From a phage, in the sequence record OR896157.1: 64,000 nt of DNA; one strand, 5' to 3'. The notes under the pieces are model-generated. The model was not told the origin of the DNA and did not search any database. It saw nothing but the letters and a program-made list of their open reading frames with translations. Below, piece after piece: positions 45,657-52,151 of the stretch (positions are counted from its first letter, which is position 1; every line of letters starts with the position of its first letter). The position numbers were made by a program, and so were the translations under genes.

Positions 45657-46310
45657 TTACTTAGTTTCTACCTTTTTGAGTGCTTTGGCACGAACGTCCA
45701 CACGGTGCGCCGACTCTATATATTTGCGAACTTCTTTAGCTATGCCAGTAGTGTAAGCTACAGTTTCGACTGTCGTATACAAGTCCATCAGCTCAGGAGT
45801 GTCGATGTTGCTGATGTTACGACCTCTGCGGATTTTAGCAAACTGAGTTTTAAGTGCAGCACCATCTTTAGAAATTTCGTTGAGAAGAGCGAGAATCTTC
45901 TCATACTTGTTTACGATGCCTTTAACGTCAAACTTGTAAAGGTCTGCGCTAACTTTAGGAGCCGGCGTCGCTTTAGGTGTCTGAACTGGAGCTGCAGGTT
46001 TAACTGCTGGTGCCGCTTTAGGAGCAGGAGCTTTCACTGCAGCAGCTTTAGGTTCTTTTGGTGCTTTTGCCGGAGATTTAATGCCTCTCAGAGTTTTAAA
46101 AGCATTTTGTACTTTGTAATAATCTTGTGGATTAGAAGTTCCAATACCATAAAGTTTTTGGACTGATGCAGCAAATTTCATGAAGTCGTTACGTTCGCCA
46201 GGAGGAACTAAATCCATAGCACTCTGCCACTTCATTTTAGTCATGCGTTCGCCAGCTTCAGTAATCATGTTGAAGCTAGATTCTGTAATAAATTCTTTAA
46301 AGTTAAGCAT
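45657..46310 (-). CDS. internal head protein-like (capsid-targeting sequence MLNFKEFITE) with Ala/Pro/Lys-rich linker
   Basis: track ORF trimmed to internal ATG 46310; N-terminus resembles T4 IP targeting peptide; low-complexity KAPKEPKAAAVKAPAPKAAPAVKPAAP segment. Confidence 0.5.
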   Translation of the reverse strand: MLNFKEFITESSFNMITEAGERMTKMKWQSAMDLVPPGERNDFMKFAASVQKLYGIGTSNPQDYYKVQNAFKTLRGIKSPAKAPKEPKAAAVKAPAPKAAPAVKPAAPVQTPKATPAPKVSADLYKFDVKGIVNKYEKILALLNEISKDGAALKTQFAKIRRGRNISNIDTPELMDLYTTVETVAYTTGIAKEVRKYIESAHRVDVRAKALKKVETK

Positions 46311-46329: not shown

Positions 46330-46585
46330 TTATTGTTGTATTTATATGCAACAACACCCCGTCCGAAGACAGGGCGTAAGAATCGACAGCACCACCTACT
46401 GGCAGATGGCCTGCAGAAGTTCATTCCCAGCGACTCGGAGGCATCAGTCTCGCCCCTGGGAATATAGCGTCGTGGAGGTGTCACTTTGCAGGTGATTAAC
46501 AACCGGTGGCTCCGTAGAACCGTTGCGGCAAGGGCTAACCTTCTCTTCTAACACGACGTCTTCATACGAGAGCTGCAACTCTCTG
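46330..46585 (-). ncRNA. GC-rich structured non-coding island (candidate ncRNA)
   Basis: ~250 nt far more GC-rich than flanks; minus-strand CCCUGUC-UUCG-GACGGGG hairpin at 46353-46370; reading frames through it give R/P/C/G-rich junk. Confidence 0.3.
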
Positions 46586-46587
46586 TA

Positions 46588-46788
46588 TTAGCTTAGATGC
46601 TTAACCGCATCGCAATCGTAAACAAAATAACTCGTTCCATATGGGTCAGAGATATTATTGAAATAATCATAAACTTTCTGTTCAGCTTCTCCATCAGAGT
46701 CAGCATCTACTGTGAACAGTTCTTCTTTAATTCTTCCGCCGTCTTCCATGTATTCTGCGATTTTATAACGTACTTGAACTAAACGCAT
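46588..46788 (-). CDS. hypothetical acidic protein
   Basis: 66-aa ORF. Confidence 0.4.
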   Translation of the reverse strand: MRLVQVRYKIAEYMEDGGRIKEELFTVDADSDGEAEQKVYDYFNNISDPYGTSYFVYDCDAVKHLS

Positions 46789-46803: not shown

Positions 46804-46879
46804 TGGTGCCGGTTAACGGATTCGAACCGCTGACCCTCTCATTACAAATGAGCTGCTCTACCAACTGAGCTAAACCGGC
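46804..46879 (-). tRNA. tRNA-Thr (anticodon UGU)
   Basis: manual fold: acceptor GCCGGUU/AACCGGC, D GCUC..GAGC, anticodon loop UUUGUAA, T-loop GGUUCGAAUCC, CCA encoded. Confidence 0.8.
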
Positions 46880-46880
46880 T

Positions 46881-46965
46881 TGGTGCATCAAGAGGGATTC
46901 GAACCCTCAATCCTTTCGGCGGGGCATTTTAAGTGCCCTGTGTATACCAGTTCCACCATTGATGC
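46881..46965 (-). tRNA. tRNA-Leu (anticodon UAA), class II
   Basis: acceptor GCAUCAA/UUGAUGC, anticodon loop CUUAAAA, 13-nt variable arm, T-arm GAGGG-UUCGAAU-CCCUC. Confidence 0.8.
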
Positions 46966-46971
46966 GAAATT

Positions 46972-47056
46972 TGGAGCTAGGAGTGAGATTCGAACTCACG
47001 AAGGGATACCCGGCGGATTTGCAATCCGCTGCCTTTGGCCACTCAGCAACCCTAGC
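46972..47056 (-). tRNA. tRNA with class-II architecture and anticodon GCA (Cys-type)
   Basis: acceptor GCUAGGG/UCCUAGC, anticodon stem-loop GCGGA-UUGCAAA-UCCGC, 13-nt variable arm CGGGUAUCCCUUC; assignment tentative. Confidence 0.5.
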
Positions 47057-47060
47057 AAAT

Positions 47061-47138
47061 TGGTCGAGGTAGAGGGATTCGAACCCGTCGACCTGTGGAT
47101 TAGAAGTCCACTGCTCTATCCAGCTGAGCTATACCCCG
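47061..47138 (-). tRNA. tRNA-Arg (anticodon UCU)
   Basis: acceptor CGGGGUA/UACCUCG, D GCUC..GAGC, anticodon loop CUUCUAA; T-stem has only 3 clean pairs. Confidence 0.7.
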
Positions 47139-49971: not shown

Positions 49972-49978
49972 AATTTGT

Positions 49979-50070
49979 ACGGAACGCCTGGATTCGAACC
50001 AGGTTAAATTGCGATTGACGTCACAATTTATCTTATGAAGGCCATGCCTCTACCATATCCGAACGTTCCG
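49979..50070 (-). tRNA. atypical tRNA-like gene / possible pseudo-tRNA with CAU-type anticodon loop (UUCAUAA) and a 9-bp hairpin insertion
   Basis: perfect 7-bp acceptor CGGAACG/CGUUCCG and T-arm CCUGG-UUCGAAU-CCAGG, but weak D and anticodon stems and a 26-nt perfect hairpin before the T-arm. Confidence 0.35.
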
Positions 50071-50121
50071 TCAAAAACGCTACTCGGCTTACGGCTTAGG
50101 CAATTCCTCGAACCGATAATT

Positions 50122-50373: not shown

Positions 50374-50587
50374 ATCAATATTCACTCCAGCAATCATGAT
50401 GCCTTCACACGAAATTGAGAGAAGAGTGATCAGTTCAACCCTTGTAGACGCGTCAAGTAAATATTGATGTGACAGCTTATTTAAGAAGAGTGAGAGTCCC
50501 AGTCTTGTACGGAGTAACCATTTATGCATTGGCAGCTATCGCGCGGTTCGCACTTCCGATAAATGGACTTACCGTTACACTCTAATT

Positions 50588-51454: not shown

Positions 51455-51699
51455 ATAAATTTACTTTCGTGAGTATGGGATTACCCTCAAGCCTTCCGGA
51501 AAGCTGAATAGGCGTTATTGGCTCTCATATACCCGTGCACAGATATAATCTTCATTAACGCAATAACTTCATCAATATACTCCGAAAGTAAACTTTCGGC
51601 GCCGTATTTAATTTTGACTGTGTAGTTATCGTTGAGGGAACTCACAGACAGGGATTAAAGTGCCGACGACTTATCAGAACGTCTTCTGACTTCTACATT

Positions 51700-52063: not shown

Positions 52064-52151
52064 TGGTGGGGAGTGATGGAGTCGAACCACCCGAGTCGCA
52101 ATGACAACAGATTTACAGTCTGCACCGCTACCTCTACGGAATTAACTCCCC
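52064..52151 (-). tRNA. tRNA-Tyr (anticodon GUA), class II
   Basis: acceptor GGGGAGU/ACUCCCC, anticodon stem-loop GCAGA-CUGUAAA-UCUGU, long variable arm; 5 nt between acceptor and D-stem. Confidence 0.75.

Follow-up and report, generated by a model that had tools for sequence, protein, structure and literature searches.

On the minus strand of the 64,000-nucleotide (nt) stretch of phage DNA analyzed here (sequence record OR896157.1; hereafter the window), positions 46587 to 46380 are probably the gene of a structured non-coding RNA of about 205 nt that belongs to the tRNA cluster of the phage. This RNA is likely to be transcribed together with the tRNAs, to be released by nucleases and to accumulate, and an accessory role would be expected. 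Its sequence is conserved as RNA structure and not as protein. The comparison of 23 distinct homologues supports a fold of eight helices and two kissing-loop pseudoknots that are backed by covariation. Judged from its sequence and location, the RNA is best described as a third small RNA of T-even-type tRNA clusters, which is more elaborate than rnaC and rnaD of phage T4 and has escaped annotation.

The source of the region is a T4-like phage of the genus Karamvirus, and the 400 bases around the element are 96-99% identical to the Enterobacter phages fGh-Ecl04, SonariX and PG7 (blastn). An earlier note on this DNA had singled out positions 46330-46585 as a GC-rich island that might represent an undescribed, stable structured RNA. 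The island is real, with a GC content of 52.3% versus 39.4% in the whole window and of 54.3% in the core of the element (46380-46587). Only 0.25% of all 256-nt segments are equally GC-rich, and all others are located in tRNA or rnaC-like blocks. The conserved RNA itself reaches slightly beyond the right-hand end of the island; the covariance model R1 scores 46587-46380 at 230 bits (E 5.6e-55) and detects no second copy within the window. The genes of this region are all encoded on the minus strand, among them 19 tRNA genes that were identified with ARAGORN between 46804 and 52057, and the element lies directly downstream of the last tRNA block (47138-46804). This localization within the tRNA cluster and on the tRNA strand is the decisive context that the earlier note had missed.

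Secondary structure of the RNA

The 23 distinct sequences represent about seven subtypes and were aligned as A2. The variable interior could not be aligned across subtypes with MAFFT and was therefore segmented manually, and the segments were checked by script against the real sequences. RNA positions are given by p = 46588 minus the window coordinate, so that 46587 corresponds to position 1. The fold is composed of two domains (Table 1). The 5' domain comprises the hairpin H1 and a junction that is closed by H2 and H2b and encloses H3, H4 and H5; the 3' domain consists of H6 and H7. Both are joined by a conserved GCUAUA linker, and a UGAA linker separates H6 from H7. The conserved RNA ends with the 3' tail GUCGAUU (46386-46380). 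No conserved pairing was found that would join the two domains or connect the 3' tail with the interior.

H2 is a long-range helix of seven base pairs (CGUCGUG/CACGACG) with an additional outer G-C pair. Its cells are paired in 96% of the cases, one column pair is seen as AU, GC, CG and UA, and all seven variants in the segmented tables are complementary. H2 is separated from H2b by the six-base bulge UUAGAA, and the GAG/CUC pairing of H2b is swapped in other subtypes for UCGG/CCGG, CAGA/UCUG, GUGAA/UUCAC, CGG/CCG or ACGAU/AUCGU, which amounts to six complementary variants. Five covarying variants were found for H3. The two-part hairpin H4 varies in its outer stem (CCG/CGG, CCAC/GUGG, CUAUG/CAUAG) as well as in its inner stem (GGUUC/GAGCC, GGACCA/UGGUUC), and the inner hairpin is missing in the Mineola-type relatives. 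In the 3' domain, H6 is a 10-bp stem with seven pairs altered on both sides. It is capped by the 18-mer GAGACUGAUGCCUCCGAG (46451-46434), in which GAG pairs with CUC and which is invariant in 22 of the 23 members. H7 consists of 9-10 bp with one bulge; all of its cells are paired and three pairs are doubly changed.

The statistics of alignment A2 are in agreement with this fold. Across H1, H2, H6 and H7, 86.7% of 842 cells are standard pairs compared with 77.7% in column shuffles, and 19 pairs are doubly changed compared with 10.8 expected (0 of 500 shuffles reach the observed value in either case). The pairing falls to 40-51% if the 3' partner is slid by one to three columns as a control, and it amounts to 79.0% on the complement of the minus strand. 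H2, H6 and H7 are independently predicted by RNAalifold, the minimum free energy (MFE) fold of the window sequence alone gives H1, H2, H2b, H3, H4, H5, H6 and H7, and the segmented tables contain five to nine complementary variants per helix. The further GC-rich helices suspected in the earlier note are accordingly real and covary.

Two mosaic elements were observed, one in the Enterobacter phage vB_Ent31 (L026) and one in EnA02 (L033). They combine H1 and a 5'-domain interior of the Mineola type with H2 strands and a 3' domain of the Karamvirus type, modules having been exchanged by recombination. Each interacting pair, i.e., the loops of H1 and H5 and the two H2 strands, is nevertheless of a single type, which is the pattern predicted by selection on the fold.

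Kissing loops

The first pseudoknot (PK1) is formed by the loops of H1 and H5. It reads UUGCAG with CUGCAA in nine Karam/Jiaoda/Moon-type members, UUACAG with CUGUAA in two others (L018, L023), and UUGCAG with CUGUAA in phage IT22, which represents an intermediate with one G-U pair. The six Mineola-type members have CUUGCG with CGCAAG, and only the central UGCA with UGCA is present in EcS1. No convincing intramolecular partner was found in the four Muldoon-type members (L008, L009, L027, L028). Their H1 loop carries the palindromic CUCGAG instead of UUGCAG and may be engaged in a different tertiary contact or in dimerization.

The second pseudoknot (PK2) connects the apical loop of H6 with the loop of H7 and is represented by ACUG[AU]GC with GCCAGU in 22 of the 23 members. 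In EcS1 it reads ACUUGC with GCAAGU; one G-C pair is replaced by a compensatory U-A pair and the two-base bulge is lost, so that both loops comprise six bases and are fully paired. Taken by itself, a 6-bp match between two loops of a single sequence lacks significance (it is reached by 100-290 of 500 shuffles), and the case for the kissing loops therefore rests on position and covariation.

Two further candidates were rejected. A long-range pairing of AGGGAA with UUCCCU in the Mineola-type members is broken in L019, in which the kissing pairs are kept. The motifs CACCUCC and GCCUCC are reminiscent of an anti-Shine-Dalgarno sequence, but the CUC of the first one pairs with GAG in H2b, whose covariation places the CCUCC motif within a helix, and the CUC of the second one pairs with GAG inside H6.

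Table 1. Localization of the RNA, its structural elements and neighboring features in the window. Strand and evidence are indicated for each feature; single loops and strands are given with their own positions.
Feature	Position	Strand	Basis
Conserved structured RNA, ~205-208 nt	46380-46587	-	R1 model match and blastn conservation
H1, 5' hairpin, loop UUGCAG (46578-46573)	46566-46586	-	Nine stem variants complementary or nearly so; recovered by MFE fold
H2, 5' strand G-A-CGUCGUG, partner 46474-46467, closes the 5' domain	46552-46560	-	Covariation
H2b, 5' strand GAG (46545-46543), and hairpin H3 AAGG-UUAGC-CCUU (46542-46530)	46530-46545	-	Covariation; H3 in MFE fold
H4, variable two-part hairpin GCCG..GGUUC-UACG-GAGCC..CGGU	46502-46529	-	Read from alignment A2
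H5, hairpin UCAC-CUGCAAA-GUGA, loop CUGCAA (46491-46486)	46481-46495	-	Five complementary variants; PK1 strand
3' strands of H2b, CUC (46477-46475), and H2, CACGACGC (46474-46467)	46467-46477	-	Covariation
H6, long hairpin, loop ACUGAUGC (46448-46441), PK2 strand	46424-46462	-	Double-sided changes
H7, hairpin, loop U-GCCAGU-A (46404-46397), second PK2 strand	46387-46413	-	Covariation
Predicted terminator hairpin (G)CCCUGUC-UUCG-GACGGGG(U), followed by UGUUGUUG	46356-46375	-	Sequence reading; homologous hairpins in relatives
TATAAATA, presumed late promoter with the T4 consensus, preceding the next gene	46339-46346	-	Sequence reading; conserved in relatives
217-aa gene, downstream neighbor of the RNA	45657-46310	-	PHROG 2280
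66-aa acidic open reading frame, upstream neighbor of the RNA	46588-46788	-	PHROG 11654
Upstream tRNA block (Arg, Cys, Leu, Thr)	46804-47138	-	ARAGORN and Rfam; transcription context of the RNA
rnaC homologue between tRNA-Trp and tRNA-Gly	~49975-50118	-	Homology to T4 rnaC
Putative rnaD homologue, unannotated, between tRNA-Asn and tRNA-Asp	~51595-51697	-	nhmmer weak (E 1.5); reading matches KM16 copy

Absence of a conserved reading frame

The open reading frames (ORFs) that cross the island had been dismissed as non-coding in the earlier note, and the homologues bear this out. If the six frames are anchored on the invariant motif, stop codons are present in each frame in most of the 23 members, and a search of the homologues for a conserved coding frame found none. 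The lengths of insertions and deletions are not multiples of three, and the substitutions are compensatory in RNA helices.

Terminator and late promoter

The sequence downstream of the RNA continues from GUCGAUU with the UUCG hairpin, UGUUGUUG, TATAAATA and the next gene. The hairpin CCCUGUC-UUCG-GACGGGG (46374-46357) had served as the principal indication of a structured RNA, but it is located outside of the conserved core. Its stem had been described as perfect; all seven pairs are indeed formed, but one of them is a G-U wobble and not a Watson-Crick pair. We regard the hairpin as a predicted intrinsic terminator of the tRNA-cluster transcript, because homologous hairpins in relatives are followed by CUUUUU, the equivalent in Mineola is annotated as "terminator" right after the RNA, and a tRNA-Gly takes its place in the Muldoon-type phages. 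TATAAATA corresponds to what we take, from established knowledge of T4, to be a late promoter.

The 66-aa ORF, the 217-aa gene and an e.8-like gene beyond it were assigned to PHROG families that lack a known function. The designation of the 217-aa gene as internal-protein-like was not confirmed. Its family, PHROG 2280, is not located downstream of the RNA in most relatives. A weak sub-threshold match of the 66-aa ORF to DpnD/PcfM-like Pfam entries was observed. This ORF is present in Karamvirus and absent from Mineola, EcS1 and EnA02, in which the RNA directly follows a tRNA.

Distribution in T4-like phages

The element was detected by blastn in 191 phage records from the genera Karam-, Jiaoda-, Moon-, Kagamiyama-, Roskilde- and Muldoonvirus. 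Their hosts are Klebsiella (135 records), Enterobacter, Serratia, Erwinia, Citrobacter, Raoultella, Cronobacter, Salmonella and Escherichia, and the R1 scores of 24 relatives range from 113 to 230 bits. It is located inside the tRNA cluster and on the tRNA strand at every locus inspected. In Mineola, EcS1 and EnA02, about 5 nt separate the CCA encoded in tRNA-Thr from the start of the element. In Muldoon, VP8 and the Serratia phage 4S, a tRNA-Gly follows 1-4 nt after its end, and in KM16 it lies between tRNA-Gly and tRNA-Pro.

None of the 191 records contains an RNA annotation over the element. They are either blank at this place or show a "hypothetical protein" or a terminator, and a single record has a 30-aa "anti-CBASS acb1". 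Overlapping coding sequence (CDS) calls were seen, for example, in Klebsiella phage Roth04 (L029, 317-409 and 455-607) and in KEN22 (L003, 1601-1813). Given that no reading frame is conserved, the CDS annotations over the RNA, including the "acb1", are spurious. A literature search, beyond whose reach lay the supplements of a catalogue of 10,006 viral RNA candidates (PMC10690425), retrieved nothing on the RNA. Together with the lack of an Rfam match (see below), the annotation survey is in line with the proposal that the element is undescribed.

Pattern scans retrieved ten contigs from IMG/VR and six from metagenomes, all of them large T4-like genomes. A blastn search of 5,426 E. coli genomes and 72,556 plasmids gave no match, and the pattern of the 3' hairpin has no match in 100,044 genomes of bacterial species. 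Five matches to the invariant 18-mer were found in the latter set, and scoring with the covariance model documents that only 18-21 nt of the motif align. Among the matches to the 18-mer, the loci L017 and L038-L042 were rejected as wider relatives since the motif alone matches. These searches indicate that bacteria lack a counterpart of the RNA and that the element is phage-specific.

Comparison with rnaC, rnaD and other RNAs

Two small stable RNAs have been known from the tRNA region of T4 since the 1970s. The gene order in T4 is tRNA-Arg, rnaD, rnaC and e.8, with rnaD and rnaC adjacent at a distance of 6 nt, and their place is syntenic with that of the RNA described here. Both are real RNAs that accumulate late in infection, and a discrete stable RNA processed from a tRNA precursor has been shown for T4 RNAC and RNAD only (PMC9697503). 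Their function is unknown (PMC3014915). A convergent single-nucleotide polymorphism in rnaD has been reported for the adaptation of a T4-like phage to a new host (PMC12685909).

T4 rnaD (species 2 RNA, 119 nt) shares with the new RNA its non-coding nature and its location in the tRNA cluster, where it is encoded on the same strand as the tRNAs, and it starts directly after a tRNA, as the RNA does in some relatives. The layout of the 5' domain is also similar, with a 5' hairpin, the closing helix (A/G)AG(U/A)CGUC with G(A/G)CGC, a bulge on the 5' side, a second short helix (GAUG/CAUC in T4 rnaD, GAG/CUC here) and a GGUU motif. The H3-H5 junction, the kissing loops and the 3' domain are all missing in T4 rnaD. 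The scores on T4 rnaD are non-significant both for the full model R1 (2.0 bits, E 3.6) and for the 5'-domain model R2 (6.7 bits, E 2.5), as is a pairwise alignment of the RNA with T4 rnaD and rnaC. The element is not matched by an nhmmer profile that was built from five T4-type rnaD sequences; the same profile matches another locus of KM16 between tRNA-Asn and tRNA-Asp (E 0.001) and, weakly, positions 51678-51633 of the window. The surrounding sequence (51697-51595) reads as a hairpin GUCAGAAGACGUUCUGAU, followed by AAGUCGUCGG...ACGGCGC and a small hairpin CGAAAGUUUACUUUCGG. The resemblance of the 5' domain to rnaD is one of layout and no proof of descent, and a paralogous relationship between the two is plausible.

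The series of RNA genes in T4 ends with rnaC (species 1 RNA, 139 nt), after which the protein genes follow (e.8, e.7 and others); the RNA takes the same position here. The two have no similarity in sequence or structure, and rnaC contains a tRNA-like T arm (GGUUCGAAUCC, CCGGGUUCGAAUCCCGG) that the RNA lacks. An orthology of the RNA with T4 rnaD or rnaC was rejected, since separate copies of both are present at other places of the cluster in the window (Tab. 1). In KM16, the rnaC homologue (L004, 1259-1403) and the rnaD-like sequence are likewise present together with the RNA. By sequence comparison, the tRNA clusters of the window phage and of KM16 appear to contain three different non-tRNA RNAs. 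The rnaD family comprises 735 records, mostly from phages of Escherichia, Shigella and Yersinia; its host range differs from that of the RNA family, and the two overlap in Moonvirus and Karamvirus.

A scan with the 4227 models of Rfam 15, including ribozymes, introns, RNase P, tmRNA, 6S RNA and riboswitches, revealed no family match. The best overlap, Ysr49, reaches 17.9 bits where the gathering score is 95 (E 6), as would be expected by chance. In the same database, a scan of the T4 rnaC/rnaD locus retrieves only tRNAs, as does that of the present region, and there is no Rfam family for either RNA. Location, GC content, the presumed co-transcription and a 7-bp helix that closes a junction are common to the RNA and the tRNAs, and its loop-loop contacts are reminiscent of the elbow formed by the D-loop and the T-loop. 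However, an anticodon arm, a T loop and a CCA end are all missing, and the RNA is far longer with about 205 nt. Kissing-loop RNAs, such as the TAR-TAR* type of complex with its fully paired six-base loops or ColE1 RNA I/RNA II, also contain two hairpin loops that are joined by six Watson-Crick pairs. Unlike these, the contacts of the RNA are predicted to be intramolecular and structural, and no antisense target is known. Y-RNA-like RNAs (YrlA, RF02553) are comparable in being modular and structured; the YrlA type has a tRNA-like module and acts by protein binding. Weak YrlA matches in the region are confined to true tRNAs and do not overlap the RNA, and no Ro/Rsr gene was noticed nearby.

Several additional observations concern the tRNA cluster. 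The 95-nt "tRNA-Met" reported by ARAGORN (49977-50071) is part of the rnaC homologue and is not matched by the Rfam tRNA model, hence the tRNA call is probably wrong. Conversely, 52067-52151 on the minus strand is a tRNA according to the Rfam model (39.1 bits) that is not listed by ARAGORN. Stretches without a tRNA call are found in the clusters of the window (50374-50587, minus strand) and of KM16 (L004, 654-1005 and 1706-1794). Positions 654-775 of the latter resemble a tRNA interrupted by a long insertion (GGTGAAATCGGTAGACACG...GGGTTCAAGTCCCACC). These stretches may harbor more unannotated RNAs.

Alternative explanations

The RNA is non-coding, structured and not a tRNA, and it is located in the tRNA cluster, on the tRNA strand and abutting tRNA genes. 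Several points nevertheless weigh against its interpretation as a single co-transcribed small RNA. It is known from sequence comparison in all phages. The family is narrow, with about seven subtypes and 23 distinct sequences whose relatedness inflates the shuffle statistics, and the covariation of PK2 is a single compensatory event in EcS1. The fold stands out only modestly by its thermodynamic z-scores, which amount to -2.5 for 290 nt and to -1.4 and -1.95 for the individual domains. The predicted terminator of the window has a good stem, but its tail UGUUGUUG is weak and a strict terminator scan makes no call here. Finally, the 66-aa ORF lies between tRNA-Thr and the RNA.

The alternative that survives best, even if we consider it rather improbable, is that the locus encodes two RNAs, a 5' domain of about 125 nt with an rnaD-like layout and a 3' domain of about 85 nt, which would be separated by a cut at the single-stranded GCUAUA linker. 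The A/U-rich conserved linker and the lack of inter-domain pairing would be compatible with this scenario. The evolution of the domains is modular, with much stronger conservation of the 3' domain; in many Klebsiella phages, the blastn match is restricted to query positions 112-234. T4 also provides a precedent, as the species 2 and species 1 RNAs originate from one precursor with rnaD and rnaC 6 nt apart. However, neither domain occurs without the other, and in each of the 23 distinct members both are contiguous and their order is the same.

A ribozyme or an intron remnant had been considered in the earlier note. A self-cleaving ribozyme or an intron remnant that processes the tRNA-cluster transcript is very unlikely. 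The compact fold, the two tertiary loop-loop contacts and the invariant unpaired bases could be expected of such an element, and some cleavage is required for the 5' end in the window, where an ORF precedes the RNA. Nothing else points to a catalytic RNA; no ribozyme or intron family of Rfam 15 matches at E<=10, and no flanking exon-like gene is interrupted. Moreover, host nucleases are sufficient for processing in T4.

A cis-acting function, either as 5' leader or regulator of the 217-aa gene or as 3' untranslated region of the 66-aa ORF, is hardly credible. The element is placed between both genes in the window, and a PHROG 2280 gene also follows in PG7, L011, EcS1 and L019. This linkage is not constant, as shown by its absence in Mineola, KEN22, KM16, IT22, Muldoon and L016, and a tRNA directly follows the RNA in the Muldoon type, while a tRNA and not the ORF precedes it in Mineola and EcS1. 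In the window, the predicted terminator and the presumed late promoter intervene before the downstream gene.

The same low probability is assigned to decayed tRNA genes or tRNA-derived pseudogenes without a function of their own. The location in the tRNA cluster, the tRNA-like GC content, a GGUUCG-like motif and the cloverleaf-shaped four-way junction of the 5' domain are suggestive of tRNAs, but neither ARAGORN nor the Rfam tRNA model (RF00005) makes a call over 46380-46587, the latter even at E<=10. The compensatory changes that keep helices and loop contacts across genera and the invariant 18-mer are indicative of purifying selection. The RNA may still have an ancient tRNA origin.

The proposal of a captured host or other foreign DNA fragment is extremely improbable; the base composition is unlike that of the phage but shared by its tRNA genes and its rnaC-like RNA, the E. 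coli genomes and plasmids contain no match, the 3'-hairpin pattern is missing from the 100,044 species genomes, and the five chance matches therein cover only the 18-mer motif. A small protein-coding gene, as annotated in several GenBank records by "hypothetical protein" CDSs and the 30-aa "acb1", can virtually be dismissed because no frame is open across the family and its indels and helix substitutions follow the RNA structure.

Maturation and possible role

The small-RNA interpretation, which we favor, allows us to propose a maturation pathway based on the genomic context and the established maturation of T4 tRNAs. The RNA would be transcribed with the tRNAs, and transcription in the window would end at the predicted terminator (46375-46356). 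Where a tRNA follows, RNase P could release the RNA, and RNase E and exonucleases that mature the 3' end of the preceding tRNA could free its other end. It would then accumulate as a small stable RNA by analogy to the species 1 and 2 RNAs of T4 (rnaC, rnaD). The position of the 66-aa ORF between tRNA-Thr and the RNA implies that 5' maturation in the window is not simple tRNA trailer processing. The 5' end might be made differently here, or the RNA might stay the structured 3' end of the 66-aa ORF transcript.

Nearly all invariant loop bases are engaged in predicted intramolecular contacts and the suspected anti-Shine-Dalgarno helix is paired, which makes an antisense mechanism unlikely. In the most speculative part of this proposal, the RNA might bind a protein or enzyme as a folded object and serve as a decoy or modulator of a host factor for RNA processing or tRNA targeting. 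An accessory and host-dependent role could be expected, albeit speculatively, and fits the observation that the RNAs of the T4 tRNA region are dispensable in laboratory hosts. It is conceivable, but in our view doubtful, that the RNA represents a new class of phage RNAs with a biochemical activity of their own, whose invariant kissing module of two hairpins binds and thereby blocks or redirects a specific host factor, such as a tRNA-targeting defense nuclease or an RNA-processing enzyme.

Significance

The repertoire of RNAs in the tRNA clusters of T4-like phages is larger than the two RNAs of T4, and its third member has two kissing-loop domains. Selection on its structure is clear in about 190 sequenced T4-like phages that infect Klebsiella, Enterobacter, Citrobacter, Serratia, Cronobacter and Erwinia; many of these phages are candidates for therapeutic use. 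Neither Rfam nor any of the genome annotations examined lists the RNA, which is often mislabeled as a hypothetical protein and once as "acb1", and the annotation of many phage genomes would be corrected. It also represents a well-defined and mutable target for asking about the role of such RNAs, and its natural variation suggests compensatory mutants. If the tentative role of the kissing module holds true, the RNA would be an RNA-based device for host takeover or counter-defense in the T4-like phages of Klebsiella, Enterobacter and Serratia and would provide, by analogy, a first functional approach to the role of the T4 species 1 and 2 RNAs, a question that is 50 years old.

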